The notes: generated from the sequence alone by a model not told the origin. A DNA stretch of 64,000 nucleotides from a virus (IMGVR_UViG_3300037504_000149), one strand, 5' to 3'; positions 14,729 through 37,565 are shown, numbered from the stretch's first letter. A program made the numbers and translations.

Positions 14729-15973
14729 CTATTCCTTATCATTATTCTTTTTAGTCTTTTTCTTCTTTTTATCTTTCTTGTTTTTACCTTTACTATCTTT
14801 CTTATTTTCTTTATCGTCGCAGTTTCCCTCTCCACGACCAGTTTTTGGACCTTTACCTTCTGGTCCAGTACCATCTAAATTACGTGCTGTAACTTCACCT
14901 GGTGACATACCTAAAGGTATAAGGTAAATATGGCCCCGTTCACCATCATGACGCCATACGTTAACATTTATACCTTGCTGAGCCATATACGCGATAGCCG
15001 CAGATTCTAGATTATCGTAATATGTTTCTAATGAAGGGACATAAAACTTTCCATCTTCTTGTTCTTCTGCTACTATTTCTTTATCTAATACTACTATATT
15101 AGGTTCGTTACCTGGTGTTTGTTTATAAACTATGTCTGTCTTTGGGTCTGGGAAGGTATTAAACATCTTTTGTAAGAAGTTATTAAAATCTTGTCCTTTT
15201 TGGTCTATTCCACTCTCCACATCTATATCTTCATAAGCGTCACCGGTTACTTCTCCCGTTTCCTCGTCATAGTATGCACGCTTCATGTTCATAAGTCCTT
15301 CCTCAATTGTAGCTAATTTCTTCTTAGCTAACAATAATGCACGCATCTTTTTAGCATTACCTGGATCTTCTTGGTAAGCTTCCTTTAGTGTGGCGACATC
15401 TGCTGCCACAACATCTCTATGATACGCAGCGGCTCTAATGAAGAATTCAATCTTAGCTGCTAAAACATCAAGATTATTGTCTCTACTAGATGTGTGTGGA
15501 TCTAGTAATTTATCGATAACTTCTTCTTCTGAACGTAGTTTAGTGGCTGGTTCACTAAGATCTAATACTGCCTCTTCTCCTTCTTCTTCTAACATATCTT
15601 CAACTTGGTCCATATCAGAACTACCAATTTGATCTGCTAGAATAGAAAAGTAGTTTTCTATACCTTGAGGTATATTCTCTATGTTTCCTATATCATCTTC
15701 TTCGGAAACTAATACGTAATCATTATTAGTTATATACTCTGCCAGAACTAATGGTACATTAATAGGGCTTATTTCATACCAATCTTCCAAGTCTCCTTGG
15801 GGAGATATTTTTAGTACCGCTGAGTCTCTAGTGTTTAGCGCATCTCCCGTTTGTTGAAGATAAACTATAACATTTACGTTATCTCGTATAACGCCTTGTT
15901 CTTTATCATCAGAAGTGATAAATATTATATCAATAAGATTATATGGTGTTCCTTCTATTTGTAAACTTTCCAC
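14729..15973 (-). CDS. Acidic putative virion protein with C-terminal DUF5320-like motif and Lys-rich tail
   Basis: GTG start with GGAGG RBS; C-terminal DGTGPEGKGPKTGRGEGNC followed by poly-Lys. Confidence 0.55.
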   Translation of the reverse strand: MESLQIEGTPYNLIDIIFITSDDKEQGVIRDNVNVIVYLQQTGDALNTRDSAVLKISPQGDLEDWYEISPINVPLVLAEYITNNDYVLVSEEDDIGNIENIPQGIENYFSILADQIGSSDMDQVEDMLEEEGEEAVLDLSEPATKLRSEEEVIDKLLDPHTSSRDNNLDVLAAKIEFFIRAAAYHRDVVAADVATLKEAYQEDPGNAKKMRALLLAKKKLATIEEGLMNMKRAYYDEETGEVTGDAYEDIDVESGIDQKGQDFNNFLQKMFNTFPDPKTDIVYKQTPGNEPNIVVLDKEIVAEEQEDGKFYVPSLETYYDNLESAAIAYMAQQGINVNVWRHDGERGHIYLIPLGMSPGEVTARNLDGTGPEGKGPKTGRGEGNCDDKENKKDSKGKNKKDKKKKKTKKNNDKE

Positions 15974-16007
15974 GGGAAACCTCCGTAAATATATTTGTTA
16001 TGTAACT

Positions 16008-16018
16008 ATTGTACCATA
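16008..16018 (-). promoter_or_regulatory. Extended -10 promoter TATGGTACAAT
   Basis: Intergenic, 35 nt upstream of the 15973 start; same motif precedes other virion genes. Confidence 0.5.
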
Positions 16019-16020
16019 AA

Positions 16021-16866
16021 CTATGGAATTAAATGAATGTATTGACTAAGTGCTTCATTACGTGCCTGATTCTGGGAAACAGTATTACCCATCATATCAG
16101 TAATTCGTTCTAGCGGAACAGTTTGATACGTCATTAACCCACCAATTGTAGATCCTTCTACTCCGCCACTTACTTTAAATTTGTCATACCCTGGACCCTT
16201 TGGGTTACGTCTTACTACCCAAGTTTTCTGATCTATTAATGGTAAGCCTACAAAGTATGCTATAACTTGTGCTGCTCCGGGAGGTATTATAATACCTCTT
16301 TTTTGCATTTCGTAAGCTCGACTTGAATCCCAAAAGTGTAAACGAGGTAACTCCCCATCCGGCATATATACCATGTAAGTAGCGCCTCCTATTCTCCCCG
16401 TACCTCCACACACTTCACATAATGGATCTGCTTCGTTAGATGAATAACTCCAACAAGAACAACGAGTTGTTAATTTACGTTCAAGCATAACAATAGCAGG
16501 CTGCCCATACATATCGTTTGCCATATATACTGAGCGTGCCTGCTGTAATGCATTCTGATAAACAAATCTACTTTTAAATTTTTTCAGTGGATCATAAGTG
16601 TATTCTTTCTCGTAATTGTCTAGTAATTCTCCGTTTAATATTGGTGATACGTTGTAGGTTACTGGCTCATATATATTTTTTACAAAATCTCTAAATAAGT
16701 ATGTTTGAACTGGTCCTATAGGTATGCGTGGTTTTGACCCATATGTAGCATATACCATATACCCATCCCACTTAGAATGAGCCTCGTCTTCTATATACAG
16801 ATCTAAGGCACCATGATAAGTGTTTTCGTCCATTACTAAAGCTGGATTGTGCACGTATAAGTTCAT
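16021..16866 (-). CDS. Neck / head-closure protein with Zn finger
   Basis: RCSCW...DPLCEVCGGTG Cys4 motif in the neck-gene position. Confidence 0.55.
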   Translation of the reverse strand: MNLYVHNPALVMDENTYHGALDLYIEDEAHSKWDGYMVYATYGSKPRIPIGPVQTYLFRDFVKNIYEPVTYNVSPILNGELLDNYEKEYTYDPLKKFKSRFVYQNALQQARSVYMANDMYGQPAIVMLERKLTTRCSCWSYSSNEADPLCEVCGGTGRIGGATYMVYMPDGELPRLHFWDSSRAYEMQKRGIIIPPGAAQVIAYFVGLPLIDQKTWVVRRNPKGPGYDKFKVSGGVEGSTIGGLMTYQTVPLERITDMMGNTVSQNQARNEALSQYIHLIP

Positions 16867-18356: not shown

Positions 18357-18383
18357 TTGTTTTCTGTTTGCAAGGACAATTTG

Positions 18384-18392
18384 ATTATACCA
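18384..18392 (-). promoter_or_regulatory. Extended -10 promoter TGGTATAAT for the HD gene
   Basis: Divergent intergenic region, about 28 nt upstream of the ATG. Confidence 0.45.
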
Positions 18393-18426
18393 AAACGTAG
18401 CTTGTTCAGAAAAATTTTATAGAGTA

Positions 18427-18435
18427 TGCTATACT
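18427..18435 (+). promoter_or_regulatory. Extended -10 promoter TGCTATACT for the glycosyltransferase operon
   Basis: gcTATACTat also occurs at 25916 and 63590; followed by a GGAG RBS. Confidence 0.55.
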
Positions 18436-18462
18436 ATAAAAGACTAATTTGACGGAGAAGTT

Positions 18463-19572: not shown

Positions 19573-20309
19573 TGTCTAATGTTAAATTATTTGTAAGTGT
19601 CAGAGATAGACTAAATATAACTAAACAAACTATAAATGATCTTCATAATGGTGGGGAACCTGTAGATATATTTGTCTTTGATGATCGTTCTTTCACAGAA
19701 AGAAAAGAGTTATTTAAATATTATGAAGAATCTATAGCTAACGGTAAAATAAGTATGGTAGTAGCTAACACAGATAGTACTACTGGTAATTATCCTTGGG
19801 GTAAATCTGTTATGCTTGCTCAGTTTGCTAAGCTGATGCAGTTATATAATACTCCTGTAGAAAACGGAATTTATGGTATAATAGATAATGATCAAAGGCT
19901 TTCACCTGGTTGGCTAGTAACTATGCGTCAACTGCTAGAAAAAGCAGAGAAAAGATGGCCTGATCGTGTAGCTGTTGTATCACCTCGTACTGAAGCAGTA
20001 CACCCTACAGTAGCTACTTCAGTTATAAATAATAAAAAAGTGGAACTTAAATATTGTGTAGGAGCATGTTCTTGGCTATTTAGACCTAATTTCTTCGAAA
20101 AGTATGGTTTACCAGATTTAAACTGGAAAAAAGATAGTCCTGGAGGGCATGCGGGAGCAGAAGACTGGTATTATTCAGAAATATTCGAGAAACTTGATCA
20201 TTACATTGTTGCGTTGAAGAGACCTATAGCCTTTGATAATGCTAAATCTACTCATTCAGCTAGAGTTAAGATCATGCGTAAACGTTTTAATGATGATACC
20301 ATAACTTAA
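19572..20309 (+). CDS. Glycosyltransferase, GT-A/GT2-like
   Basis: VFDDRS, IDND (DxD), GACSWLFR and AED motifs. Confidence 0.7.
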   Translation: MSNVKLFVSVRDRLNITKQTINDLHNGGEPVDIFVFDDRSFTERKELFKYYEESIANGKISMVVANTDSTTGNYPWGKSVMLAQFAKLMQLYNTPVENGIYGIIDNDQRLSPGWLVTMRQLLEKAEKRWPDRVAVVSPRTEAVHPTVATSVINNKKVELKYCVGACSWLFRPNFFEKYGLPDLNWKKDSPGGHAGAEDWYYSEIFEKLDHYIVALKRPIAFDNAKSTHSARVKIMRKRFNDDTIT

Positions 20310-20344
20310 TACGTGTATATCCCTATCCAGAAGGGATATAAATA

Positions 20345-21496: not shown

Positions 21497-21504
21497 GGAG
21501 TATC

Positions 21505-23441: not shown

Positions 23442-23449
23442 GGTAGTAT

Positions 23450-24325: not shown

Positions 24326-25191
24326 CATTGATCGGACATGGTTATTGGGGTAGTAAACTAGCTCAATATACGCCAGCATACTTTAATTGTAAATATTATG
24401 TAGGATCTACTTTTGATTTGGATACTATATGGAATGATAAAGAAATAACTGGTGTTATAATAGCTACTCCTATAGATACACACTACAACATAACTAAACA
24501 AGCATTGCTTGCTGGAAAACATGTATTTGTAGAGAAACCTCTTACTACATCTAGAGATGAAGCAGAGGAATTAGTAACTATAGCTAACAATAATGGCCTA
24601 CAATTAGGGGTAGATTATACACAAACATTTACCCCAGCTATTAGACTAATACGTACCTGCCTACACGAAATAGGTAACTTACGTTATATAGATATGAAAA
24701 CTACCAATTTAGGAAGATTTAAGCATGATGTATTCTGGATGTTAGGTGTGCATCATTTATCTATATTAGATCAAGTATTCCCTCTACACCATTTAAATTT
24801 TTCATTGAACAGACTTATGATGTATAACAAACGGTGTACAAGTGGTTTGTTGGAATTTTCTTCAGATGATAGGCAGATCACAGGACAAATATTCGTGTCT
24901 ATAAACAATCCTACTAAGCAATTAAAAGTTACATTCTACGGTGATAACGGTACATTAATATACAATCCTGTAGAAGGGCCTTCGGTTAGTTGGACAGTTT
25001 ATTCTAAATTACCTAATAAAACAAAGCCTCACCTTGTTCGAGCAGAACAACAGGTGGACTTTGATGAATCAAATAACTTAAAGTATTCTATACAGTACTT
25101 TAGAAAATTAATAGATGGAATGGCAGAAAGTAATGCACAATCTGCGGCCCAGATAACAACAATTGTAGACAATCTAATTAATAGACCTTAG
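24304..25191 (+). CDS. Gfo/Idh/MocA-family NAD(P)-dependent oxidoreductase
   Basis: IGHGYWG, VIIATP..TH, GKHVFVEKP, D......HH.S. Confidence 0.85.
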   Translation: MRKLPTIALIGHGYWGSKLAQYTPAYFNCKYYVGSTFDLDTIWNDKEITGVIIATPIDTHYNITKQALLAGKHVFVEKPLTTSRDEAEELVTIANNNGLQLGVDYTQTFTPAIRLIRTCLHEIGNLRYIDMKTTNLGRFKHDVFWMLGVHHLSILDQVFPLHHLNFSLNRLMMYNKRCTSGLLEFSSDDRQITGQIFVSINNPTKQLKVTFYGDNGTLIYNPVEGPSVSWTVYSKLPNKTKPHLVRAEQQVDFDESNNLKYSIQYFRKLIDGMAESNAQSAAQITTIVDNLINRP

Positions 25192-25388
25192 TCTACATAT
25201 ATGTATCGTGTAGCCTTTTTCTTCTTATTTTTATAAAATTCTCTAGCTTTAGTTAATGCAGTAGGTATGGCTTTATCGTCTTCCATACCTTCTTTCTTTA
25301 ATGCGTTTCCTATCTCTATAGCTTTATCTCTTATCTTCTTAGGTTCATTCTTCCATGAATTAGGATAATCTTTTTTACTCCAAGGCAT
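25188..25388 (-). CDS. YdaT-like small protein with C-terminal extension
   Basis: MPWSKKDYPNSWKN....R.KAIEIGNAL..EG.....AIPTA resembles Bacillus YdaT-type stress proteins; extra tail KKKKATRYIYVD. Confidence 0.65.
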   Translation of the reverse strand: MPWSKKDYPNSWKNEPKKIRDKAIEIGNALKKEGMEDDKAIPTALTKAREFYKNKKKKATRYIYVD

Positions 25389-25389
25389 C

Positions 25390-25815
25390 CTAACCTCCCG
25401 TAAACAAGTCCCATATAACTTTACCTATAGCTGTAACAGCTCCTGATGCAATTAAAAATCCTAGTACCTTACCTAAAGTAGTCTTGAACACTTTTTGAAA
25501 CCATGACATTTTATCGACTCTCTTATCTAAAAGATTTAAGTCATTTATATGCTCCTCCCTAGCAGTAATCAGTGCTTTCTTCATATATTCAATAACTTCT
25601 TCGTTCTTTGCACATATCTTATCACATTTTTTATCTCTATCTTTAATTAGTTGTTTAAGTTCCATATGGTGTTGTGCATTAACTTCCGACATCATCGTAA
25701 CTTTAGTGTCTAAAGCTGATAGTTGCTTACCTTGTTCAATTTGTTCTCTTTCGAAAACTCGTTGATTACGCTGTAATTCTCTAATAGCTTCAGCTTTTCC
25801 ATTATTACTATCCAC
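25390..25815 (-). CDS. Coiled-coil protein with C-terminal transmembrane helix (possible holin-like or membrane protein)
   Basis: Heptad region followed by hydrophobic LGKVLGFLIASGAVTAIGKVIWDLF. Confidence 0.45.
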   Translation of the reverse strand: MDSNNGKAEAIRELQRNQRVFEREQIEQGKQLSALDTKVTMMSEVNAQHHMELKQLIKDRDKKCDKICAKNEEVIEYMKKALITAREEHINDLNLLDKRVDKMSWFQKVFKTTLGKVLGFLIASGAVTAIGKVIWDLFTGG

Positions 25816-25850
25816 GGAGGTGCTCCTTTTATAAAGTTGGTTACACTATA

Positions 25851-25861
25851 ATTATAACATA
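25851..25861 (-). promoter_or_regulatory. Extended -10 promoter TATGTTATAAT
   Basis: Identical 11-mer also upstream of the scaffold and portal genes. Confidence 0.6.
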
Positions 25862-25892
25862 TTTCGTTTTACTAAAAAATTTTACCGCAAAC

Positions 25893-25921
25893 TTGAATTT
25901 TGATAAATAATCCGCTATACT
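25893..25921 (+). promoter_or_regulatory. Sigma70-type promoter TTGAAT-N17-TATACT
   Basis: 17-bp spacer; AAGGAG RBS and ATG at 25953 follow. Confidence 0.7.
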
Positions 25922-25952
25922 ATGACCGTAACTTTGCTTCAAGGAGAATTGT

Positions 25953-26327
25953 ATGGAAAGGAAAAAGCGTGTTTATGTCGCAGGAGCGTATTCTGCAGAT
26001 AACGTTCTAGATGTGCTACGTAATATGAATAGAGGTATTAGGTTAAGTGCTAAAGTATTTATGTTGGGTTATGCTCCATTTTGTCCTTGGCTTGACTACC
26101 AGTTTGCGCTTAATGCTCGTTTAGACGAAGGAGAAGATGTTACACTAGAAAACTATTACGGTTATAGTATGGCTTGGCTTGAAGTTAGTGATGCTGTTTT
26201 AGTAGTTCCCGAAAAACACGAGGATTCTAAAGGTACACAAGCAGAGATTAAACGTGCTAATGAGCTGGAAATTCCTGTATTCTTCGATATCAATGATATG
26301 GTAGATTATTTTGAGGAGGGAGAATAG
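25953..26327 (+). CDS. Nucleoside 2-deoxyribosyltransferase-fold protein (DUF4406/DUF1937-like)
   Basis: VYVAGAYS...PFCP...SDAVLV...SKGTQAE...A....IPVF. Confidence 0.7.
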   Translation: MERKKRVYVAGAYSADNVLDVLRNMNRGIRLSAKVFMLGYAPFCPWLDYQFALNARLDEGEDVTLENYYGYSMAWLEVSDAVLVVPEKHEDSKGTQAEIKRANELEIPVFFDINDMVDYFEEGE

Positions 26328-26656
26328 TGGAAGATAACGAAAAAACATTAACTGAAGGTACTAAATATGATGAAGGTAAATTACCTATTTACCTACTACC
26401 TAGTAAACCATTAGAGATAATTACCGAAGTTCTACAATTTGGTGCAGAAAAATACACCCCTCATAATTGGCGTAAAGGGATGAAGTGGAGTCGTTTAATC
26501 TCTGCGATAATGAGACACTTACTAGCGTGGAAGGAGGGGGAGGATGTTGATCCAGAGACCGGTATTTCCCATTTAGGGCATATCGGCTGCGATGTTTTGT
26601 TTTTATTAGAGTATGAAGCTAGGGGATTAGGCGAAGATGATAGGTATAAAGTTTAA
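26327..26656 (+). CDS. dATP/dGTP diphosphohydrolase-domain protein (DUF5664-like)
   Basis: KYDEGK...LLP...VLQFGAEKY..HNWRKG...RHLLAW..GEDVDPETGISHL.H. Confidence 0.8.
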   Translation: MEDNEKTLTEGTKYDEGKLPIYLLPSKPLEIITEVLQFGAEKYTPHNWRKGMKWSRLISAIMRHLLAWKEGEDVDPETGISHLGHIGCDVLFLLEYEARGLGEDDRYKV

Positions 26657-27036
26657 TCGTCTATCCATTCATTATGAAGTTTTCTAAGGGCATCTGTCCA
26701 AGTACCGGGTTGATATGCTGATTTTTCGGGATCCATAGTATATTCATTTCCAAAACGTTCCGCGTGTGCTAATATAACTTCCCATTGTGCATCAGTGGGA
26801 GGTTTAGTGCTTAAATATCCTGCGTGACATATTCTTATCCACCCTAAACTTTCAAGTGTAGACTCTACATCCTCCCCATAATACTGATCAATTATGTCTT
26901 CTTCTATGATTTCATGCTGCCCATAATCACTCAATTCATAGTCTCCATTGGGGGAGAGCCACCCATACATAAATCCCATATCCCAATAATACTCCGTGTC
27001 ATCGTTTATATATGCAGTATATACTAAATATATCAT
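26653..27036 (-). CDS. Small paralogue family member 1 (W-x-x-PNG / H / GW-x-R)
   Basis: GWLSPNGDY...GQH...LESLGWIRI..AGYL; similar to 35025..35402 and 36996..37373. Confidence 0.65.
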   Translation of the reverse strand: MIYLVYTAYINDDTEYYWDMGFMYGWLSPNGDYELSDYGQHEIIEEDIIDQYYGEDVESTLESLGWIRICHAGYLSTKPPTDAQWEVILAHAERFGNEYTMDPEKSAYQPGTWTDALRKLHNEWIDD

Positions 27037-27037
27037 T

Positions 27038-28525
27038 TTATTCTCCCAAACTATCTTGTATTGTATTTATTATACTGTTATTAGTTTCTATTGATAATAC
27101 GTATTTTAAAAACTCTTTATAATGATCTGAAAATTGTAAAGCTTCTTCAACGATTGTTTCTTTGGCATAATAATCGTCAGCTAAAATATACCAATATTTC
27201 ATTGCTGTGTTAGATAATTTTGGAATTAATACCGATAAACATTCAAAATCACTATATCCAGGATCTACATCTCTAAGTTTTTGCCCAATATATGTTACCA
27301 GCTCAGGGAATCTATTAACAATACTGGCTCTAATATTTACTAAGCCTTCCAATATACGATCATTATCAGTATCTCGGTATATTTCATCCCAATAACGCAT
27401 ATTAATCGCATCAAAATATTTATCTACTATATCTCTTCTTTCCTCACTATAAGGTTTGTATTTCATATCTTCATTATGCACAAGTATATCTAACATTAGT
27501 TGCCCATTGAGTTGTTCAGTTGCCCAAGAATCGTATATATTTTCTTCCTCTGTATTAACAAATGTAGTATATGTATCAAACTCCCACCCCTCACTTCCAA
27601 AGTTATCTAGTATTCTTTTAGCACATGATAATGTAGTTCCATGATAATACGTAAACCCTTCTATATCCTTATATACTGGATTTTCCCATCCTGTGGACAC
27701 TTCGTTATTTTGGGATATTATATCTACTTTCTTTATCCATCCATCAGGGATGGTATCTCCATATATAGTTTGAGCCATAGATTCTTCTAATAGTTTAACT
27801 ATTATTGGCATTACAGCTTGTTGTATTACACTTTCCCACACATTATACGGAAACTGCTTTATATTTTCTACTACTAGCCAAACTATATGATTAACTAATG
27901 ATTCCGCGTCTTCCATAGTTACTACTGAGAATTCTTCGTCTACATGTGTCCCTGGTGTAGGAGTAAATGTCGATACATCCTTATAGTCCCTATCTGGGAA
28001 AGTAGTTATTGTTGTATATAGATTACCTAAAAACTCATCGTATATAGCGTAAAGTTCTGTATTATAATTTGAATTATCCTTTGATATTATACTATCCAGT
28101 CTATCTAAAATAACTTCCTCATTATCTGTTTCACTATATTCGTGTATCAACTCATCGATAAAGTAGAAAATTGCTCTATGTATTGCACCTGCCACCATAT
28201 CAACATCTTGATCTATTTTATAAGGATTTTCTTCCTCATCATATATAGGTACATTTATGTGTATTATTGCTCCTAGATCTGTAAATTTACCACCATAGTC
28301 CATAATATGATGATGCTTACTGTTTCTGTCACTCCCCAACATTTTATATAGCGCATATCTATGTGCTACATTGTAATCTGTTGTAATATTTACCCCTCCA
28401 AATTTATCAAAAAGATCCATAGAATCAGGTGACGTATATCTAAGATTACTTTTAGGTAGCGTGGCATCTAATTCTGGAGTATAAGTGGGATAGATGGGGT
28501 CGGCTGTGCGAATAAAATAAATCAT
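27038..28525 (-). CDS. Putative circularly permuted ADP-ribosyltransferase-fold protein B
   Basis: GVNITTDYNVAHRYA, AIIHINV and QTIYGDTIPDGWI precede YYHGTTLSCAKRIL. Confidence 0.55.
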   Translation of the reverse strand: MIYFIRTADPIYPTYTPELDATLPKSNLRYTSPDSMDLFDKFGGVNITTDYNVAHRYALYKMLGSDRNSKHHHIMDYGGKFTDLGAIIHINVPIYDEEENPYKIDQDVDMVAGAIHRAIFYFIDELIHEYSETDNEEVILDRLDSIISKDNSNYNTELYAIYDEFLGNLYTTITTFPDRDYKDVSTFTPTPGTHVDEEFSVVTMEDAESLVNHIVWLVVENIKQFPYNVWESVIQQAVMPIIVKLLEESMAQTIYGDTIPDGWIKKVDIISQNNEVSTGWENPVYKDIEGFTYYHGTTLSCAKRILDNFGSEGWEFDTYTTFVNTEEENIYDSWATEQLNGQLMLDILVHNEDMKYKPYSEERRDIVDKYFDAINMRYWDEIYRDTDNDRILEGLVNIRASIVNRFPELVTYIGQKLRDVDPGYSDFECLSVLIPKLSNTAMKYWYILADDYYAKETIVEEALQFSDHYKEFLKYVLSIETNNSIINTIQDSLGE

Positions 28526-28532
28526 ATTTTCC

Positions 28533-28561
28533 TTGACAAAAATTTAGTTGTGTGCTAAAAT
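28533..28561 (+). promoter_or_regulatory. Sigma70-type promoter TTGACA-N17-(TGc)TAAAAT
   Basis: Perfect -35, 17-bp spacer and extended -10. Confidence 0.75.
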
Positions 28562-28625
28562 TAGCTTATGCGAGTAGGAATCACACATTATTTAAACGAC
28601 TTTGTATACATTATGAGGTTATAAT

Positions 28626-29543
28626 ATGTCTACTTCAAACTTCTTGTACAGTATTCCTGAGTTAACTATATTTAACTCATTTACAGGTAATTATGAAACA
28701 CTTCCTAAAAGTGATAAGTTATGGAATATAAAACCAGTATTCACCACCCCATATACATTAACATCTTTACGTACTATATATTTTTCACAATTATTATGTA
28801 ATATAATGGAAAATCTTAAATACAAATGTTGCTCACTAACTATTCCTGTTATTAATAACTGGTTAAAATCTTTATTACACTATGAGAACAACAATAATCA
28901 GTTGGACGATACATCTGATACATTATATATAGTTGGTAAAGATAAAATAGATAGCATTGATATTACTAAGTATTCTAGTGCAACCAGTAAATTAATTGTT
29001 GTGGAAAGTCTTAATCTATACCATTATGAAGGTATGCCTGTAGTAAATATTATGTTAAGTTTACAGGAAAATACATTACTTAAATTTCCTAACATCGTAA
29101 AACTACTATTAATGTCATCTACAATGGTAGCACATTATACTCAAGCATATAATGCATATATAGATGGGGTTACAAATTTCTTTGATAATTGTGTTAATTT
29201 AGATAATATTACCGATAATGATGCAGTGTATAATATTTTAGCTGATCTTCATGTAGAGGAAGTAGACCCAAACATTGTTTATACATTATCGTCTAGTTTA
29301 GATAATTTACATAGTATTACTGATATGGGTAGCTTTTTAGATCATACAATTAGGTATACATATAAGTATAAATTACATGATCTGTACGATACCTTAGTTA
29401 AACGCGCCGAAGAAATATGCCCTTATTATAAAGTTGTAGATAATACGTTAAACCCTATCGGTGTAGAAAAGTCTTCTTATCCTCCTCTAGTAGAATGGCC
29501 CATACCCTTTCCTATACCCTTTCCTAAACACTTTATGTTGTAG
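28626..29543 (+). CDS. Hypothetical protein, possibly a degenerate CysRS-like class I synthetase fold
   Basis: LTIFNSFTGNYETLP...SLRTIYFSQLLCNIMENLKYK resembles the CysRS N-terminus, but HIGH and KMSKS are absent. Confidence 0.35.
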   Translation: MSTSNFLYSIPELTIFNSFTGNYETLPKSDKLWNIKPVFTTPYTLTSLRTIYFSQLLCNIMENLKYKCCSLTIPVINNWLKSLLHYENNNNQLDDTSDTLYIVGKDKIDSIDITKYSSATSKLIVVESLNLYHYEGMPVVNIMLSLQENTLLKFPNIVKLLLMSSTMVAHYTQAYNAYIDGVTNFFDNCVNLDNITDNDAVYNILADLHVEEVDPNIVYTLSSSLDNLHSITDMGSFLDHTIRYTYKYKLHDLYDTLVKRAEEICPYYKVVDNTLNPIGVEKSSYPPLVEWPIPFPIPFPKHFML

Positions 29544-30543
29544 CTTGTGTAGCTCGTTCTAGTGTAGTTCCATGATACCTTACATTTCTTGTATTAATTA
29601 TGTGATCTATGTTATCTTCATAATCCTCATTTCGATATATTTCAATAAACTCAGTAGTATATTTTCCATAAATAGTTTCCATATCGCTCATAGTTCGGTA
29701 TGGTGCTGAAGTTAAATATTCTTCAAAATCAAAACCTTCAAAAGATACTTTATAAATATTTATAATATGCTCAGCTTCTATGTCACTAGTATAACGTTCT
29801 TGTACGTATCCTGAAGTTTGTAGTTGTTTAACATCAGTACTTATTTCAAAAGAAGTTAATAGTTCATATAACCATTTAGAAGCTGTTTCCAGTAATTCAA
29901 CTACTTGATCTTGATAGTCATTGTTGTGTAGATAATCTAAATTTATACGTTCTAGATACCCTATTAAAGATCTACTAAACTTCTCTATACGGCCTCCCTT
30001 CCTGTACCTTTCTATCCCACCTAACCATTCTTTAATATAGTTTATATTCTCAAGTATTATATCCTTCACTTCTGTTATGCGTTCCTCAGTGGAAGTATTA
30101 GATAGTATAATAGCTGCTTTATCTATATTATCTAATAGTTTCTCTAAATAATATTTTGCGTCTTCAATCTCTCCGCTAACCATATAAGGGTAATTTTCTA
30201 TATCTTGTGGTGTATATGGCTGATAATAAGCATACTCATCAACTACTTTTGTATCTATATCAATATCTAAAAAATCTTTGTATGGTCTTATATCTATAGA
30301 TATTACAACAGGTTCTGAATATCGCTCATCATTCATGTAATCAATGAATGTACGTTGCACGGCATAAAACCCTGCTGATTGCATGGCTTCTTCTATGCTA
30401 CCTTTAGGATTTATAACATGTACCCCTACAACATCTTCAGGATTGTTCTCGATATGTGTCATTATATCCCCACCACCTGGGTCATTACGTTTGGTATTCT
30501 CGGGCGGGTTACTGTATAACGGTTCTGATATAAAATATAGCAT
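29533..30543 (-). CDS. Putative circularly permuted ADP-ribosyltransferase-fold protein A
   Basis: GVHV...AGFYA, PVVISIDI and QERYTSDIEAEHI, then a C-terminal RYHGTTLERA. Confidence 0.5.
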   Translation of the reverse strand: MLYFISEPLYSNPPENTKRNDPGGGDIMTHIENNPEDVVGVHVINPKGSIEEAMQSAGFYAVQRTFIDYMNDERYSEPVVISIDIRPYKDFLDIDIDTKVVDEYAYYQPYTPQDIENYPYMVSGEIEDAKYYLEKLLDNIDKAAIILSNTSTEERITEVKDIILENINYIKEWLGGIERYRKGGRIEKFSRSLIGYLERINLDYLHNNDYQDQVVELLETASKWLYELLTSFEISTDVKQLQTSGYVQERYTSDIEAEHIINIYKVSFEGFDFEEYLTSAPYRTMSDMETIYGKYTTEFIEIYRNEDYEDNIDHIINTRNVRYHGTTLERATQATT

Positions 30544-30557
30544 TAGTTATCCTTATA

Positions 30558-30783
30558 TTATAGCAATGTCAAATCGTCTTCTGTAATTTCACCAATACCT
30601 ATCTGTTTAAGTAGCCAAAATGTATAGCTACCGCCTTCTCCTGTAGGATCGAAACTATTTACCCCCTAATAAATTCTTCAGCTTCTTCCTCAGTATTTAT
30701 TTCAGGATAAGTACTGGCTTAATCATTTTAGGTAACTGATCTTCAAAATCTGCTGTATATTCTTTAAGAGTAAAATATATCAT
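30558..30783 (-). pseudogene. Frameshifted remnant of a DPT-motif gene with an MIYF N-terminus
   Basis: Three frames read MIYFTLKEYTADFEDQLPKMI / ASTYPEINTEEEAEEFIRG / VNSFDPTGEGGSYTFWLLKQI; the last matches QYDPTGTSYNHWLIVQV in ORF 31948..34092. Confidence 0.55.
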
Positions 30784-31958
30784 TATTTATTTTCCTCTAT
30801 AATACGTTCTAGTTCTTCATGTTGATCTAGAGAAGGATTTTCTATAACTCTATCTAGAAGTTCATTAAGTATAATTCCTACCATTCTGCCTTGTGGAACA
30901 CCTAAACTTATAACATCACTACCATCTACCTCTAAATCTTTAACTTGTAAAGGTATATCTTCCTGTAGTATAAATTGTATACCTTTCTGAACATCTTCAT
31001 ATACAGATGGCTCTGTTTCTATCCTATATATTTCTAATATATCATCAGCATTGTCTCTACCTACATTACGCATTAATTGGTTAGGATCATTATCAATACC
31101 TGGATAATTGTCTAAATAGTTTAATACTTTTCTAATTACTTTATTAGGATATCGTAATTTATTTAAGGTCTCATCTGCTCTTTCTTTTACTGGACTTAAA
31201 AATATAGCTAAGCGAACTTCTATACTGTTAGGTGCTTGCTCAATCTTATTACCTATATCAGTTATATTAGCTGGGTAATTTTCTACTATATTATCTAATA
31301 AACCTGTTACACTTAAATAATTAAGCATTGTTGTAGGTTTTTCATATAGTAAACCTTTAGTAAACTCAGTATTTATACGCTCGATTGCCGGTTGTGTTAT
31401 ATTCGTTTGTTGGATAGCTGCCAGCAATTCATCATCTATTTCAAAATTAAATTTAGCTGCTTGTCTACAAGCTCTATAAGCTCGTAATCCGTCCTCTAAG
31501 AGCCTTTCTTCGGCTGAGCCTACCGCACGTATTACTCCCTCCTCTAAGTCCTCTCTACCGTTGAATGGGTCCGTTAGAGAGCCATCGACAAGGTTAACAG
31601 CCATCGCATTTATAGTGAAGTCACGACGTGCTAAATCTGGTACAATATCATCTACGAATTCTACACTGTCTGGTCTGCGTCCATCCGTATAATCACCTTC
31701 AGTGCGGAACGTAGTTATTTCTATTGGTTCGTCATTATAAATAACAGTTACTGTTCCATGTTGTAATCCAGTAGGATGTATGGTTATACCTGCACTTTCA
31801 TACACTTCCATTACAGTTTGGGGATTGGCGTTTGTTGCTAGGTCATAATCATCAGGGTTTATACCAAGCAACATATCCCTAACTGCTCCACCTACTAAGT
31901 AGCAGGAGTAGTTAGCTTGTATAAGAATCTGTGCAACTTGTTTGTAATTATTCATCAT
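30783..31958 (-). CDS. cca: Class II CCA-adding tRNA nucleotidyltransferase (no HD domain)
   Basis: YLVGGAVRD..LG..PDDYDLAT, HGTV, EITTFR.EG.Y.DGRRP (flexible loop), DLARRDFTINAMA, EDGLR (EDxxR), ERI. Confidence 0.92.
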   Translation of the reverse strand: MMNNYKQVAQILIQANYSCYLVGGAVRDMLLGINPDDYDLATNANPQTVMEVYESAGITIHPTGLQHGTVTVIYNDEPIEITTFRTEGDYTDGRRPDSVEFVDDIVPDLARRDFTINAMAVNLVDGSLTDPFNGREDLEEGVIRAVGSAEERLLEDGLRAYRACRQAAKFNFEIDDELLAAIQQTNITQPAIERINTEFTKGLLYEKPTTMLNYLSVTGLLDNIVENYPANITDIGNKIEQAPNSIEVRLAIFLSPVKERADETLNKLRYPNKVIRKVLNYLDNYPGIDNDPNQLMRNVGRDNADDILEIYRIETEPSVYEDVQKGIQFILQEDIPLQVKDLEVDGSDVISLGVPQGRMVGIILNELLDRVIENPSLDQHEELERIIEENK

Positions 31959-34092
31959 AAATATAATAAATTCTTGTAAGTTTACTACTTGTATATATAC
32001 CTGGTAATGGTATGTTTTGTTTTCTATATTGCTCTTTTAGATATTCAACTACAGTAAGATGCCCTCTACGAGCAGCCATACGTAATGCTTCACCATAACA
32101 AGCATGTATATCAGCACCATGTTCAACTAAATATTCAACTACAGGAAGATGCCCCCTTCTAGCAGCCCAACGTAATGCATAATCATTACTAGCATGTATA
32201 TTAGCATCATGCTCAACTAAATATTCAACTACAGGAAGATGTCCCTTCGCAGCAGCCGCACCTAACGCATAATCATTCTGAGCATGTATATTAGCATCAT
32301 GTTCAACTAAATATTCAACTACAGGAAGATGCCCATACTCAGCAGCCCAACGTAATGCTTCATCATCGTTAGCATGTATATTTGCATCATGCTCAACTAA
32401 ATATTCAACTACAGGAAGATGCTCTCTCAAAACAGCCCAACGTAATGCATGATCATCATCAGCATGTATATCAGCATCATGCTCAACTAAATATTCAACT
32501 ACAGGAAGATGCCCATTCTCAGCAGCATAACGTAATGCATAATCATTCCTAGCATGTATATCAGCATCATGCTCTACTAAATATTCAACTACAGGAAAAC
32601 GCCCATTCTCAGCAGCCCAACGTAATGCTTCATCATCCTTAGCATGTATATTTGCACCATGTTCAACTAAATATTCAACTACAGGAAGATGCCCATTCTC
32701 AGCAGCATAACGTAATGCACTATCATTGCCAGCATGTATATCAGCATCATGCTCAATTAAATATTCAACTACAGGAAGATGCCCTTTACGAGCAGCCATA
32801 CGTAATGCAGAATCATAATAAGCATATACATTAGCACCTTGCTCCACTAAATATTCAACTACAGGAAGATGCCCTTCTGAAGCAGCCAACCGTAATGCTG
32901 CATTATCATCAGCATGTATATCAGCCCCATTATCTAACGCTTCTTTAACACCTTGTAGATCATTATTTTTAACAGCATTAATTAAATCCTTGTTAGATTT
33001 TATAGAAGGAATTGCTTTTAATAATGCATCTATTGCTCCTTTTAGTTCTTCATTATCAAAATCTATAGTATTACCTTCACTATTATAAAGTGTATCTACT
33101 GCTTTAACATAAGCTAATACAGGATTTCCTTGCTCAAAAACTATATACATACCTTCGCCAATATATTTCTCAGCATAATCTCTCTGCTTACCTGTACACC
33201 ACTTAGTTCCTTGACTATCCCTAAATAATGCTTCGACATCTAGATAATATCTAACTTCATAAGTATTATCTTGATATTTAACTTCATAACCTTCTTCTTT
33301 ACCTACTTCTTTAGTACCACCTATTTTAATATCAAAAACATTACTTAGTAGTATCTTAATATCATCTACATATAAATCTTGCGTATCTAAATTACTTAGA
33401 TTATCAAAATCTATACTTTTATCTATATTAACTGTTTCATTATTTTGATTTAGTAACTTACTCTCATAAGGATCCCAAAGGAATTTAACATTAGTAGAAG
33501 GAAATACAAATCCATAGTAAGAACCTTTATCTATCCATTCTTCTGCTATTCTAGGATTATTAGTATCTAGACTAGTTCCTCTACTAAACTCCATTAAGGC
33601 TTCTTTATTACTAAGCTCTAATATCTTGCATTCATTTAGATTAGTTTCTATATTATAAGCTAACTCACGAGTACCTTGATCAACTAAGTTTAACCATTGT
33701 TGTTTATTAGAAGTATAATCAATATTCTTCATTGTTTCTATTAAATCCTGCCAAGTATATTGTTGTATATCCTTAGAAGGTAATACACCTGGAATATCTT
33801 TAATAGTGTTAAAGTAATCTAGATATTTAGTTAGGGTATCTCCTTGTTCATCTAGATCTAAACCATACTTTAATACTTGAACTATTAACCAATGATTATA
33901 AGATGTTCCGGTAGGATCATATTGCTTAACTTGATCAATCAAGTTATAAGCATATTGCTCATCATAATCCTCACCCATGATATTTTGAATATCAGTAAGG
34001 AGCCGCTTATTAACAGCTAGAATGTTAAGCCAAGCAAGATAAGATGATGTTGTATTTTGAGTAATACAATACTTTATACCTGTTGTTCTCAT
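31948..34092 (-). CDS. Multidomain ankyrin-repeat protein (DPT-motif region, two GTKWCT/PcfJ-like modules, 10 ANK repeats)
   Basis: 30-aa repeats ALRxAAxxGHLPVVEYLVEHxAxIHAxxDx; N-terminal YDPTGTSYNHWL and SQGTKWCT. Confidence 0.85.
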   Translation of the reverse strand: MRTTGIKYCITQNTTSSYLAWLNILAVNKRLLTDIQNIMGEDYDEQYAYNLIDQVKQYDPTGTSYNHWLIVQVLKYGLDLDEQGDTLTKYLDYFNTIKDIPGVLPSKDIQQYTWQDLIETMKNIDYTSNKQQWLNLVDQGTRELAYNIETNLNECKILELSNKEALMEFSRGTSLDTNNPRIAEEWIDKGSYYGFVFPSTNVKFLWDPYESKLLNQNNETVNIDKSIDFDNLSNLDTQDLYVDDIKILLSNVFDIKIGGTKEVGKEEGYEVKYQDNTYEVRYYLDVEALFRDSQGTKWCTGKQRDYAEKYIGEGMYIVFEQGNPVLAYVKAVDTLYNSEGNTIDFDNEELKGAIDALLKAIPSIKSNKDLINAVKNNDLQGVKEALDNGADIHADDNAALRLAASEGHLPVVEYLVEQGANVYAYYDSALRMAARKGHLPVVEYLIEHDADIHAGNDSALRYAAENGHLPVVEYLVEHGANIHAKDDEALRWAAENGRFPVVEYLVEHDADIHARNDYALRYAAENGHLPVVEYLVEHDADIHADDDHALRWAVLREHLPVVEYLVEHDANIHANDDEALRWAAEYGHLPVVEYLVEHDANIHAQNDYALGAAAAKGHLPVVEYLVEHDANIHASNDYALRWAARRGHLPVVEYLVEHGADIHACYGEALRMAARRGHLTVVEYLKEQYRKQNIPLPGIYTSSKLTRIYYIYDE
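32033..32932 (-). repeat. Tandem 90-bp coding repeat, 10 copies (ankyrin array 1)
   Basis: Anchor atattcaactacag at 32041, 32131, 32221 ... 32851 with an exact 90-bp period. Confidence 0.95.
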
Positions 34093-34121
34093 TATTTAGA
34101 TCCTTCGGGTTCAGTGTACTA

Positions 34122-35006
34122 TTAGATGGTCCAGATATTATGGCCGAAGGGTACCATAGCCATTAAGATGAAGTTCTCTACATATCTTACACGTCTACCA
34201 AGTCCCATGTGTGAGCCTCCATCCTTGTACCTAGCAAGAGGACTCATCTCAAGATCTGATTGATATAATTGTTCGAACGTATCTGCTAAACGCATATAAT
34301 CTCGTTCTACACGTACACTAACTGGTGGTAGGTCGGCAGTATGTCTATTGGCTTCCTCCAAACTCTGCCTCACTCTAAATGCTTGTGCTAGAGATGAGTT
34401 AAGTAATAAATGCTCCAATTGTTCGGGAAAATCTTCTAAAGTCCACCCTCGTTCACCTAATGTGTGAGAATAGGCTGTATTCAAGCGAGCAAGAGATGTT
34501 TTAAGACACATGGCTAATTGAGAAGTAGACCAACGACCTGCTTCTTCCCAAAAGTTTACTCGCCATAGTTTAGGATTATGCTCAAATAACAGTAATCGTA
34601 ATGTTTGAAGAAAGTATTCTGGCCTAGAAACAGTACCTAGTTCAACTGTATCCTTTATTATTTGTAAATCTCCATGTTTAAATCCTCTAACTTCTATTTC
34701 ATAAACACCAGGTTCTAAATCTGCTGTTTGCAATTCTATTTTGTATGTACCATAACCACCTTCACTAGACTTAGGCTTAATGGTTACGTTACGTGGATTT
34801 ACTTCTTTACCATCTTTTGTAAACTTTACACTTATATCACGTGCTGTAGTTGCGTTACCTTGTTTACTTTCAAAGCCAGCAACATAAAAAGCAGCGTATT
34901 GCTCTATACCTGCAATATATGAAACTTGTGGACTAGATAAAGTTCTATACTCAGATGGTGCTAGTACGGTTCCGTTTAAATTGTCTAAATCAACTTGAGT
35001 TGTCAT
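34122..35006 (-). CDS. Head-tail adaptor/connector with N-terminal Ig-like domain
   Basis: GTYKIEL.TADLEPGVYEIEV beta-sandwich, then helical RWSTSQLAMCLKTSLARLN...WTLEDFP; lies between capsid and neck genes. Confidence 0.5.
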   Translation of the reverse strand: MTTQVDLDNLNGTVLAPSEYRTLSSPQVSYIAGIEQYAAFYVAGFESKQGNATTARDISVKFTKDGKEVNPRNVTIKPKSSEGGYGTYKIELQTADLEPGVYEIEVRGFKHGDLQIIKDTVELGTVSRPEYFLQTLRLLLFEHNPKLWRVNFWEEAGRWSTSQLAMCLKTSLARLNTAYSHTLGERGWTLEDFPEQLEHLLLNSSLAQAFRVRQSLEEANRHTADLPPVSVRVERDYMRLADTFEQLYQSDLEMSPLARYKDGGSHMGLGRRVRYVENFILMAMVPFGHNIWTI

Positions 35007-35024
35007 TTATTATCACCTAAATAA

Positions 35025-35402
35025 TTAAAGTATGTCTTGAAGAGTACTATTAAGTATACCACTATCTAAAACACCTACACCACCGTCAGGTGTTTTGTAG
35101 GTTGTATTTTTATATAAATCATAATGCTCATTAATAATATATAATTGTTCTTGTGTAGCTTTTTTACCAGGCTGCATCAAATACCCAAAACAACTAACTT
35201 TAACCCATCCTTGATTTTCTAAATATTCTTCTGGATTATTAATAGAGTTTACTTTAGCTAATCCTTGATCTATTAGATCATAAACAATATGAAAAGTTGC
35301 ATCTATATGTCCAGCATATTCAACTGGATGATAATTACCATTAGGTTCCAGCCACATGAATAATGGTATTTTATGTTCATTAACACATATAAAATACATC
35401 AT
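35025..35402 (-). CDS. Small paralogue family member 2
   Basis: MWLEPNGNY...YAGH...LENQGWVKVS.FGYL. Confidence 0.65.
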   Translation of the reverse strand: MMYFICVNEHKIPLFMWLEPNGNYHPVEYAGHIDATFHIVYDLIDQGLAKVNSINNPEEYLENQGWVKVSCFGYLMQPGKKATQEQLYIINEHYDLYKNTTYKTPDGGVGVLDSGILNSTLQDIL

Positions 35403-35411
35403 AATATTCCT

Positions 35412-36971
35412 TTAATAAGCTGCTATTATATTCCAAATATAATACGTCTTTGTAAATTTACTACCTGTATGTATACCTTCGGGTAATGGTATGTTTTGTT
35501 TTTTATATTGTTCTTTTAGATATTCAACTACAGGAGTATGCTCATTTAAAACAGCTAGACGTAATGCCCAACCTTCCCAAACGTTTATATCAGCACCTTG
35601 CTCAACTAAGTATTTAACTATAGGAAGATTTCCTTTCTGAGAAGCTGCACGAAATGCAAAATCATAATCGGCATGTATATTCGCACCTTGCTCTACTAAA
35701 TATTTAACTACAGGAAGGTGTCCTCTCCAAGTAGCCTTACGTAACGCATAATCATCATCAGCACGTATATCAGCACCTTGCTCAACTAAGTATTTAACTA
35801 TAGGAAGGCGTCCATACCAAACAGCCCAACGTAATGCATAATCATCATCAGCATGTATCATCTTTTCTGCTGCTTCTTTACCCTCATTTTGTTTAATATA
35901 TTCTACTAAATATTTAACTACAGGAAGATATCCTTCCATAGCAGCATAACGTAATGCCTCATCATCCGCAGCATGTATATCAGCGCCCTGCTTAACTAAG
36001 TATTCAACTACAGGAAGATATCCTTCCATAGCAGCCCAACGTAATGCTTGATCATTGTTAGCGTGTATATCAGCACCCTGCTCTACTAAACATTCAACTA
36101 CAGGAAGTTGTCCATGATAAGCAGCAATACGTACTGCATAATCATCGTCAATGTGTATATCAGCACCATCATCTAGAGCTTTTTTAATTCCTTGCAGATC
36201 ATTACGTGCAATAGAACTTATTAACAATTGTGTTGCTTCTTTAATTTTTATAATCCTATCTTTATCCATTTCAGGATTTTTCATTAAATCAAATATTTCT
36301 CTAAGTTCTTCTTCGTCACTACTAAAATACTCAGCAACTGTTCCACCATGATGAGCAACATCTTTAATATGATCTATTAACATCATTCTTTTATCTACAT
36401 CTATTTCTTGTTCTATCTCTTGTAACTGATCTTCGATACCTTCGTGTACTCCATCTCCGGTCATTCTAGGAGTATTTTCTTCTCTAATAAGGTTAACTAG
36501 TTTATTAGCAAAGATATCTAATATCTTAGTAAATAGTTCAGGAGCTAGATTATTTAGATATAAATTTTTGTAATAATGATATAAATTTAACCATTCAAAA
36601 CCATTTAAAAATTCTATATTACCAAAAGCATCTTGCTCTAAAAATTCTATTGCTTCAGTTACAACAGGAGCTTCATAAACATCATCGACATAATTAGTAG
36701 TAGTATCATTAGGATGCTTATCTAATCTCATTATAATGTTTTGTAAATCATCATCTAGTAAATCTATATCTCCGTAAACTTTTGTAACATGATCTCTAAA
36801 TTCAGATAATGTGGTTATGGATTCCCCATTAGGAGAAATAACAGTCATACCATTATTTAGTTTAGTAGTATAACCCATGTTACTCATGATTTCTGCTATC
36901 TCATAAGTTTCATCTACATAAGAATAATAGTATTTCATACTAGTTTTAAACTTCATAATTATATTGTCCAA
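35412..36971 (-). CDS. Ankyrin-repeat protein 2 (7 ANK repeats) with an unrelated acidic N-terminal region
   Basis: Same ANK consensus, N-cap NDLQG.K.ALD.GADIH and C-cap EYLKEQY.KQNIPLP as ORF 31948..34092. Confidence 0.85.
   Translation of the reverse strand: MDNIIMKFKTSMKYYYSYVDETYEIAEIMSNMGYTTKLNNGMTVISPNGESITTLSEFRDHVTKVYGDIDLLDDDLQNIIMRLDKHPNDTTTNYVDDVYEAPVVTEAIEFLEQDAFGNIEFLNGFEWLNLYHYYKNLYLNNLAPELFTKILDIFANKLVNLIREENTPRMTGDGVHEGIEDQLQEIEQEIDVDKRMMLIDHIKDVAHHGGTVAEYFSSDEEELREIFDLMKNPEMDKDRIIKIKEATQLLISSIARNDLQGIKKALDDGADIHIDDDYAVRIAAYHGQLPVVECLVEQGADIHANNDQALRWAAMEGYLPVVEYLVKQGADIHAADDEALRYAAMEGYLPVVKYLVEYIKQNEGKEAAEKMIHADDDYALRWAVWYGRLPIVKYLVEQGADIRADDDYALRKATWRGHLPVVKYLVEQGANIHADYDFAFRAASQKGNLPIVKYLVEQGADINVWEGWALRLAVLNEHTPVVEYLKEQYKKQNIPLPEGIHTGSKFTKTYYIWNIIAAY
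35512..36171 (-). repeat. Tandem 90-bp coding repeat, 7 copies with one 30-bp insertion (ankyrin array 2)
   Basis: Anchor tatt(c/t)aacta at 35521, 35611, 35701, 35791, 35911 and 36001, with a one-mismatch variant at 36091. Confidence 0.9.
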
Positions 36972-36995
36972 ATATGATAAATAAAAGTCTTATTT

Positions 36996-37373
36996 CTACA
37001 GTATTTTATTTAATGTGTAATCTAATCTATCCTTACTAAAGCGTATATTCATGGGACCATAATAATCAATAGACATGACTTTGTTGCAATACTTATCATA
37101 ATGAGCCATTATTACTTCAAATTGGTCATCGTTAATATGTAATCCATTAAGCATAAGATATCCAGCGTCAGTAACTCTTACATACCCTAATTGTTCTAGT
37201 AATAATTCAGGATCTTTATTGATAATAGATGTGTCCCCTGAATCAACCATCTTACTTACTATTGCCGCAGCTTTCTCACCATGTTCAGCATAATTCACAG
37301 GGTAGTAATCACCGTTTGGTGCGACCCACATAAAAGGTGGAATATAGTCATTAGTACAAATAAAATATATCAT
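36996..37373 (-). CDS. Small paralogue family member 3
   Basis: MWVAPNGDY...YAEH...LEQLGYVRVTDAGYL. Confidence 0.65.
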   Translation of the reverse strand: MIYFICTNDYIPPFMWVAPNGDYYPVNYAEHGEKAAAIVSKMVDSGDTSIINKDPELLLEQLGYVRVTDAGYLMLNGLHINDDQFEVIMAHYDKYCNKVMSIDYYGPMNIRFSKDRLDYTLNKIL

Positions 37374-37519: not shown

Positions 37520-37520
37520 G

Positions 37521-37565
37521 AGAAACCCCGGATGTGGTACAGTATAATTATACCACAATCCGGGG
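37521..37565 (-). terminator. Intrinsic terminator after the RNA ligase, containing extended -10 TGTGGTATAAT (37547..37557)
   Basis: CCCCGGATTGTGGTA...TACCACATCCGGGG stem followed by TTTCT. Confidence 0.6.

Follow-up and report, generated by a model that had tools for sequence, protein, structure and literature searches.

A recurrent N-terminal heptapeptide on otherwise dissimilar proteins in the accessory island of a phage-G-like jumbo phage

Why should several genes of one phage, which encode proteins of different families, open with almost the same seven amino acids? This question is raised by a stretch of 64,000 nucleotides (nt; hereafter the window) of the virus IMGVR_UViG_3300037504_000149, which is part of a 229,864-bp metagenomic contig from an uncultured jumbo phage. 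A group of minus-strand genes in this window starts with variants of the peptide MIYFI(C/H)T, called the tag in the following. An earlier annotation of the same DNA (the sequence-only reading) had proposed a portable beta-strand tag that is usable at either terminus and loads diverse effectors into the phage head for injection with the DNA. The motif is statistically solid, unexplained, and present in a very small clade, and we hold with moderate confidence that MIYFI(C/H)T is a functional, portable docking or sorting peptide.

The six minus-strand starts on which the earlier annotation was built read as claimed (Table 1). They belong to the proteins p127, p495, p336, p125a and p125b and to the remnant of a gene for a protein of 965 amino acids (aa), and all six are preceded by a Shine-Dalgarno sequence of the AAGGA/GAGGA type at a distance of 4-9 nt. 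The pattern M-[ILM]-Y-[FLY]-[IVT] opens five of the 62 genes of the 64-kb window, to which all gene-level counts refer, plus the one pseudogene remnant, and it is confined to 26.6-37.4 kb. None of the 57 other gene starts carries it, structural and non-island genes included. With the amino-acid composition of the window the probability of a match is 3.2e-4 per position, and 0.02 N-terminal hits are expected in 62 genes; the probability of five or more is 2e-11, and that of three or more, with paralogues collapsed to independent carriers, is 1e-6. Inside the proteins only two matches occur in about 20,500 aa, equivalent to an internal rate of 1e-4. Both strands of the 64 kb contain ten strings of ATG plus motif, six of which are the gene starts described here, and two of the four others were checked and found to be out of frame within genes. 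The low internal rate and the presence of only four stray strings led to the rejection of an AT-bias artefact. The A/U-rich starts of other genes read MK, MS or MN, not MIYF.

Mis-called starts were also rejected as an explanation, because only the MIYF start codons have a Shine-Dalgarno sequence and because the region evolves as coding sequence. A public protein collection starts p125b at Met15 and p495 at Met36, and this erases the motif. It is a practical warning that automatic calls, by starting two genes at later Met codons, can hide such a peptide. Two further elements of the sequence-only reading carried no signal. The xTA/KxA sites said to lie next to the motif are uninformative, as the window proteome contains 180 instances of [KR]xA and 67 of TA, and the supposed internal copy HIYLIP is a lone internal strand of a 414-aa protein, followed 20 residues later by a sub-threshold match to DUF5320.

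The conservation of the tag was analyzed in three genomes, i.e., the window, one Logan sample represented by the contigs L001 and L004, and the NCBI contig L003. The two Logan contigs are 85-93% identical to the window, and L003 is syntenic, its identity being about 69% at the DNA level and 36-44% at the protein level. The search of IMG/VR and JGI metagenomes yielded no further members of the clade. Two other candidates were discarded, namely L005, an unrelated phage that has the domain of the p125 proteins but not the tag, and L006, a chance DNA match inside a minus-strand open reading frame. L003 carries the tag on three tandem p125 genes (MIYYIC, MIYYIH and MIVYIC), and its p127 orthologue starts with VLYFIH. 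The orthologues of p495 read MIYFIHTADPIYPTY (85% identity) and MIKFIHTAVPIYPTY (L003, 36% identity overall), and 11 of the first 15 columns are invariant across the three orthologues of this protein. A different start, MQNIVHMFEKTADFEDQ, is found in the L003 counterpart of the 965-aa protein. A further L003 start, MLYLYC of a 163-aa protein, was not counted; it is probably untranslated, since the Shine-Dalgarno sequence precedes a downstream Met and the window orthologue is devoid of the extension. The wider consensus is M-[ILM]-[Y/H/K/V]-[F/Y/L]-[I/V/T]-[C/H/S/R/Y/F]-[T/S/V...], often with an acidic residue at positions 7-9 and, slightly further on, a proline. The acidic residue is found in four of the five tagged proteins versus 16 of the 57 others; it is Asp in about half of the tagged cases and is missing in p489 of L003.

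The codons of the tag change more readily than its amino acids. In the core five codons, close orthologue pairs differ by four synonymous changes and one non-synonymous change, and the swaps within the motif comprise TAT/TAC, TTT/TTC, ATA/ATT/ATC and CTA/TTA. L003 uses TAC, ATC and ATA and the window TAT, ATT and ATA, and the L004 orthologue of p336 has the same peptide despite the synonymous changes CTA>TTA and TTT>TTC. The peptide is kept by orthologues with 36-87% identity. Because synonymous codons change while the peptide is retained, and because the start of p495 is conserved above the average of the protein, selection acts on the amino acids of the tag. A signal at the RNA or DNA level that spans the start codon, such as an operator, promoter or recombination site, was rejected as the sole cause on account of this synonymous drift, and because the regions upstream of the tagged starts share only the ribosome-binding site with its Shine-Dalgarno sequence.

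How many kinds of proteins carry the tag? The proteins p127, p125a and p125b (127, 125 and 125 aa) are paralogues with 30-43% identity. In a BLASTP comparison p495 and p336 have only the start and the string YHGTTL in common, and they may be very old paralogues. The remnant consists of the first 28 codons of the 965-aa gene, which is intact at L004:1904-4801. A clean 2.9-kb deletion in the window, corresponding to L004:2135-5066, has removed the 965-aa gene together with an 88-aa gene, and in L004 these two are probably one split gene of about 1,050 aa. The whole deletion region comprises 30560-30783 in the window versus L004:1904-5082. The N-domain of the 965-aa protein (p965) is homologous to that of the 714-aa ankyrin protein of the window (Ank714). 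Another carrier is a 224-aa protein of L004 (p224), which starts with MMYFISSEKHTIPI. An all-against-all BLAST revealed no match between the p125, p495, p336, p224 and p965 families, and a profile comparison of p125 versus p495 with hhalign gave a probability of 3%. By these comparisons the heptapeptide is present on at least four families without other detectable similarity, i.e., the 125-aa proteins, p495/p336, the 965-aa protein and the 224-aa protein. The earlier claim of unrelated carriers thus stands for the families, but not for each of the six starts, as three of the carriers are paralogous and the one at 30783 is a deletion stump.

The fold labels given to the carriers fared less well. 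For p495 and p336, said to be ADP-ribosyltransferase-like, there was no Pfam or PHROG match, a profile search of Protein Data Bank (PDB) sequences gave nothing below E = 0.09, Atlas scores were at most 0.80, and the AlphaFold 2 (AF2) model of p495 had a mean predicted local distance difference test score (pLDDT) of only 43.6. The label YdaT-like for a 66-aa protein of the window was not borne out either, since the Pfam hits at E <= 1 were Gp49 (E = 0.023) and DUF2188 (E = 0.13) alone, and neither reaches its curated cut-off. The ankyrin repeats were confirmed, with Ank_2 matches of E = 2.6e-73 in the 714-aa protein and E = 1e-34 in a 519-aa protein (Ank519).

The tag also appears to be separable from the proteins that it opens. 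In L004, p224 occupies the place that p125a has in the window. The two genes are identical in 15 nt upstream and in the first 15 coding nt, after which there is no DNA similarity, and the next nine residues of p224 still resemble the p125a leader at the protein level. In the family that is defined by a common N-domain (E = 3e-23), p965 is tagged and Ank714 and the 1050-aa protein p1050 are untagged. Because of the p224/p125a junction and the difference between p965 and Ank714/p1050, we infer that transfer or replacement of the tag is independent of the rest of the protein. Gene shuffling in T4-type phages is mediated by mobile regulatory cassettes (promoter-early stem-loops). They resemble the p224/p125a case in that short conserved sequences at gene boundaries serve as recombination junctions, but they are non-coding DNA or RNA, whereas the unit described here is coding and conserved at the amino-acid level.

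The abrupt end of identity between p224 and p125a would also be expected if the tag were the footprint of gene-start capture. In this case a resident p125-type gene would have supplied incoming genes with its ribosome-binding site and first codons through illegitimate or short-homology recombination. The A/U-rich codons would have been kept for initiation and coupling, and the peptide would be inert. The island that harbors the genes is demonstrably plastic, its genes are tightly packed with coupled starts (ATGA, TAATG), and in the window the core codons contain hardly any G or C. However, the order I-Y-F-I is kept through codon changes, including G/C-ending codons in L003, the first 15 residues of p495 are conserved far better than the protein as a whole (36% on average), and 57 other genes start efficiently without the tag. 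We regard an inert footprint as unlikely.

Where does the tag lie with respect to the protein fold? For p125b, an AlphaFold model from an eight-sequence alignment reached a mean pLDDT of 89.8 and a predicted template modelling score of 0.82. In this model residues 1-7 have pLDDT values below 50, and there is no secondary structure before residue 15. A profile search with the 125-aa family retrieved 348 remote homologues, the matches of which begin at about position 13-16, and the remote homologues of the domain outside the clade were found to be without the extension. A hydrophobic run in the equivalent upstream segment is present in seven of 184 domain copies, most of them from this phage clade. 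According to the model and the homologues, the tag is a clade-specific add-on outside the fold in the 125-aa family, and for this family the earlier claim that the motif is portable and lies beyond the recognisable domain is corroborated; the low-confidence model of p495 contributes nothing to it. The sequence-only reading had itself named an AT-bias artefact and the presence of the extension on homologues as outcomes that would speak against it, and its idea of a tag withstood both checks.

These results bear on the view that the strand is an ordinary structural element, such as a first beta-strand or a strand-swap arm, and that the carriers are distant homologues or have converged. A hydrophobic strand at the N-terminus does occur in a small number of the remote homologues of the 125-aa domain (e.g., P0017 with MKFYFVAVY, and P0074), the tag of p495 is continuous with a conserved N-terminal block, and the string YHGTTL in both p495 and p336 would fit old paralogues. 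Against this, AF2 leaves residues 1-7 of p125b unplaced, the hydrophobic run is restricted to seven of 184 copies, the carrier families have no profile similarity, and near-identical heptapeptides on four families are improbable by convergence. The first strand of a common domain was rejected for the 125-aa family on the basis of the AF2 model and the homologues, and hhalign detected no relation of this family to p495. A purely structural role seems very improbable to us.

Independent of the tag, the homology searches show that the 125-aa proteins define a widespread uncharacterised domain. Its signature is G-W-[LIV]-[SA]-P-x-G-x-[FY]-x-P-[CV]-x-[YF]-x-x-H (for the three genes of the window see Table 1), and it is often repeated in tandem, with up to nine copies in proteins of 800-1,650 aa. 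The domain has no Pfam family, and a comparison of the p125b model with the PDB by Foldseek and VIA-align gave no fold match (best Z = 2.9).

The sequence-only reading had extended the tag to the C-termini of other proteins. The C-terminal strings are present as stated, but they are mostly one family by inheritance. The pattern [YHI]Y[IV][YWA] has no internal occurrence in about 36,700 aa of the window and its relatives and ends five proteins, all of which belong to the family Ank714/Ank519/p965-p88/p1050. The tails of Ank714 and Ank519 are paralogous, and the 965-aa and 1050-aa proteins, which have the same tail, join them via the shared N-domain described above. The 1050-aa protein is the positional orthologue of Ank714 in L003; it has no ankyrin repeats and ends with RIHYVYEQ. 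About two independent carriers thus remain for the C-terminal motif, namely the extended ankyrin family and the 66-aa protein. The tail of the latter is looser, as it reads TIKYVYDI in L003, and in L004 (10244-10426) YIYVD is lost by a CGA>TGA stop. Some of these codons have further roles: the W-R codons of the L003 tail form the GGAG (Shine-Dalgarno) of the next gene, which encodes the CCA-adding enzyme, and the last codons of the 66-aa gene are one arm of an inverted repeat between convergent operons. Judged from their sequences, the tails with the pattern [RK]-x-[YH]-Y-[IV]-[YW] are a second, weaker and separate motif, which is partly constrained by the start region of the next gene. The motif of the C-termini differs from that of the N-termini, and there is only a weak case for a single tag that works at both ends.

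Exposed aromatic segments are typical recognition elements of Lon, and terminal tags are typical for ClpXP. The exposed aromatic termini could accordingly be degrons for a host protease of the Lon or Clp type, which would limit the life of host-takeover proteins. The tag is short, hydrophobic, aromatic and, in one good model (p125b), disordered; a degron would work at either terminus; and one relative, L004, has lost the tail of the 66-aa protein by a stop codon while the gene was kept. However, a degron need not be so sequence-specific, nor so conserved across this divergence, and we give this explanation little credence.

What, then, might the tag do? It is exposed, has only seven residues, is aromatic and beta-branched, is conserved at the peptide level, is portable, and is confined to one island, and because of this combination a docking or sorting signal is the explanation that we favour. 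The tag may have spread by recombination at gene starts, as p224 shares only the ribosome-binding site and first codons with p125a. The exposed aromatic beta-strand would dock each carrier to one common, putative partner, and this docking would act as a sorting or assembly signal, which could account for the persistence of the tag. Among the candidate partners the prohead core has the best precedents, namely the capsid-targeting sequence of T4 and the DarB leader of P1, although we put it forward only tentatively. Alternatively, the tag might bind the aromatic C-terminal tails of the ankyrin/1050-aa family, the small protein p62, or a protease or chaperone. The tag would offer a seven-residue handle for finding the common partner of the carriers. 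Even if the partner is not the capsid, this would be a hyperplastic phage island that spreads a functional peptide by gene-start recombination.

Several points weigh against a docking or sorting peptide. Only three genomes carry the motif, and thus few lineages stand behind the conservation statistics. Position 3 accepts K, V and H in the relatives. In p495, the uninformative AF2 model is accompanied by a tag that runs unbroken into a strongly conserved N-terminal region, where it could be structural. Others apply to the capsid as destination. None of the recognised head proteins of the window has the tag, and the head maturation protease of the window matches no Pfam family even at E <= 10, T4 gp21 included, and has no solved relative. 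The carriers are acidic, with isoelectric points of 4.1-4.8 versus a window median of 5.5, and they are co-transcribed with an RNA ligase and a CCA-adding enzyme from a sigma-70-like promoter.

To our knowledge, it is rare that unrelated phage proteins have a short leader in common. The first 10 residues are sufficient for capsid targeting in T4, with critical positions Tyr4 and Phe7; positions 4 and 7 serve targeting, and positions 8 and 10 processing, with an acidic residue at 10 (PMC9026906). By analogy, the tag could be a capsid-targeting sequence that binds the scaffolding core, so that the carriers are enclosed in the prohead, the tag is perhaps cut off by the prohead protease, and the cargo leaves the head with the DNA to serve as early effectors. 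The locus has the pattern of the T-even internal-protein loci, in which diverse proteins are combined with one short conserved leader in a hyperplastic locus; the leader of about 7-10 N-terminal residues is the only common feature of the diverse accessory proteins, as in IPI, IPII and IPIII of T4 (PMC3012670, PMC9026906). Variable locus, key aromatic positions and a subsequent acidic residue are shared with the T4 loci, and in the tag the aromatics are at positions 3-4 and the acidic residue at 7-9 in four of the five tagged proteins. The island is flanked by the head and tail modules, with which it shares the strand, a connector-like gene lies inside it (an Atlas lead only), and the window encodes a head maturation protease. 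Both termini of T4 Alt are trimmed, which is a partial precedent for signals at both ends (PMC9026906).

However, the differences from T4 are considerable. The acidic residue of the tag is Asp in about half of the cases, and Asp blocks processing in T4 (PMC9026906). The sequences are unrelated (MKTYQEFIAE in T4 versus MIYFIC/HTxD/E). The cleavage site of T4 is hydrophobic-x-Glu, and no cleavage motif is definable for the tag. The protease is without a match to the gp21/S77 families in Pfam and cannot be placed with gp21; the nearest proteins are gp19 of phage G and mycobacteriophage proteases. The T4 internal proteins are small and basic, whereas the carriers are large, strongly acidic, and encoded in an operon with tRNA-repair enzymes (RNA ligase and CCA-adding enzyme). 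Furthermore, the ankyrin proteins have a separate, C-terminal motif. Taken together, capsid targeting is the foremost specific form of the docking explanation, but one that we rate as rather doubtful.

Two other systems are instructive. In P1, capsid targeting requires no more than the first 30 residues of DarB, which direct this anti-defence protein as well as reporters into the capsid (PMC9024508). This is likewise an N-terminal segment, but the signal of about 30 residues is found on one protein and has no sequence similarity to a heptapeptide that several families share. The jumbo phages phiKZ, 201phi2-1 and SPN3US have many cargo proteins with terminal propeptides that are thought to aid incorporation, and the propeptides of their head and ejection proteins are removed by proteases of the gp175/gp245 type (PMC9026906, PMC5694885). 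In contrast to the tag, those propeptides are long, they are not sequence-conserved between families, and their x-x-E sites were determined by mass spectrometry.

The T4 capsid-targeting sequence and the P1 DarB leader are packaging signals that were later exploited to bring foreign proteins into cells. A third, unrelated leader in a phage-G-like jumbo phage would mark accessory genes acting together, probably in early host takeover or counter-defence. A bolder scenario, to which we assign a still lower probability than to capsid targeting as such, is that such a phage loads a changing set of large acidic effectors into its head for co-injection, guided by a terminal address code that consists of N-terminal MIYFI(C/H)T and possibly C-terminal (R/K)xYY(I/V)(Y/W); the cargo would comprise ankyrin binders similar to designed ankyrin repeat proteins (DARPin-like) and the GWLSPxG-domain family. 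If true, this would be a capsid-targeting system independent of those of T4 and P1, and it could be used as a packaging handle.

Table 1. Positions of tagged starts, C-terminal tails and genomic modules in the window
Feature	Position	Strand	Remarks
p125b N-terminus, MIYFICT	37353..37373	-	gene 36996-37373; L001 orthologue MIHFICN
p125a N-terminus, MMYFICV	35382..35402	-	gene 35025-35402
28-codon remnant of the deleted 965-aa gene, MIYFTLKEYTADFEDQ... (MIYFTLKEYTA)	30697..30783	-	
p336 N-terminus, MLYFISE	30523..30543	-	gene 29533-30543
p495 N-terminus, MIYFIRT	28505..28525	-	gene 27038-28525
p127 N-terminus, MIYLVYT	27016..27036	-	gene 26653-27036; p125-family paralogue, linker 10 residues longer
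Ank519 tail, KTYYIWNIIAAY and stop	35412..35450	-	gene 35412-36971; L001 orthologue KTYYVYSI and stop
Ank714 tail, RIYYIYDE and stop	31948..31974	-	gene 31948-34092; overlaps start of CCA-adding enzyme gene
66-aa protein tail, TRYIYVD and stop	25188..25211	-	gene 25188-25388
Accessory island, contains all tagged genes	25188..38715 (25.2-38.7 kb)	-	between tail and head modules
Tail and baseplate-like genes	roughly 0.1-18 kb		
Head genes	38.8-47.6 kb		
Putative scaffold	38793-39446		
Capsid protein	39895-40914		
684-aa head protein	41449-43503		
Head maturation protease	43576-44916		PHROG 18299, E = 5.5e-10
Probable portal	44904-46529		placed by position; no PHROG or Pfam match

The genomic setting of the tagged genes is that of an accessory island in a structural region (Table 1). 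The nearest cultured relative by the major capsid protein is Bacillus phage G, with 28% identity, and by this protein the virus is a phage-G-like jumbo phage, not a phiKZ-like one. The phages in GenBank gave no DNA match to the window. The island contains the RNA ligase, the CCA-adding enzyme, the two ankyrin proteins, a connector-like 294-aa gene, several family-less genes, and plus-strand inserts. It differs between the relatives by the 2.9-kb deletion, the cassette replacement, and varying lengths of the ankyrin arrays. From the RNA ligase through p336 there is no intergenic gap of 35 nt or more except for the deletion remnant, and the promoter-like site TTGAAA-17-TATACT precedes this run, while other operons, head genes included, have TGnTATAAT sites. 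Such extended -10-type sites or TTGAAA-17-TATACT are found upstream of 25815, 18356, 43503, 47649, 53225 and 38715. The sites suggest that both the head genes and the island are transcribed via host sigma-70-type promoters.

Two genes of the island deserve mention. The 294-aa gene (34122-35006) is among the better-conserved island genes, with 69% DNA identity to L003. Its protein-language-model features adjoin viral clusters (0.96-0.97), one of which was automatically named head-tail connector, and it may be a structural gene stranded amid accessory genes. The protein p62 (62 aa, 37370-37558) is encoded directly upstream of p125b and is conserved in all three genomes; it contains the internal string EYIYCVDG, which is similar to the N-terminal and the C-terminal motif alike, and it might be a candidate for the partner.

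Further observations concern the plasticity of the region. The CCA-adding enzyme gene is split at L004:813-1904 into pieces of 212 aa and 96 aa. The ankyrin array that forms the 519-aa protein in the window (35412-36971) is part of a 445-aa protein in L001 (10403-11740). Both Logan contigs end at the island, and L001 breaks within the ankyrin repeats of the Ank714 orthologue; it is likely that the ankyrin repeats cause the assembly breaks in these contigs.

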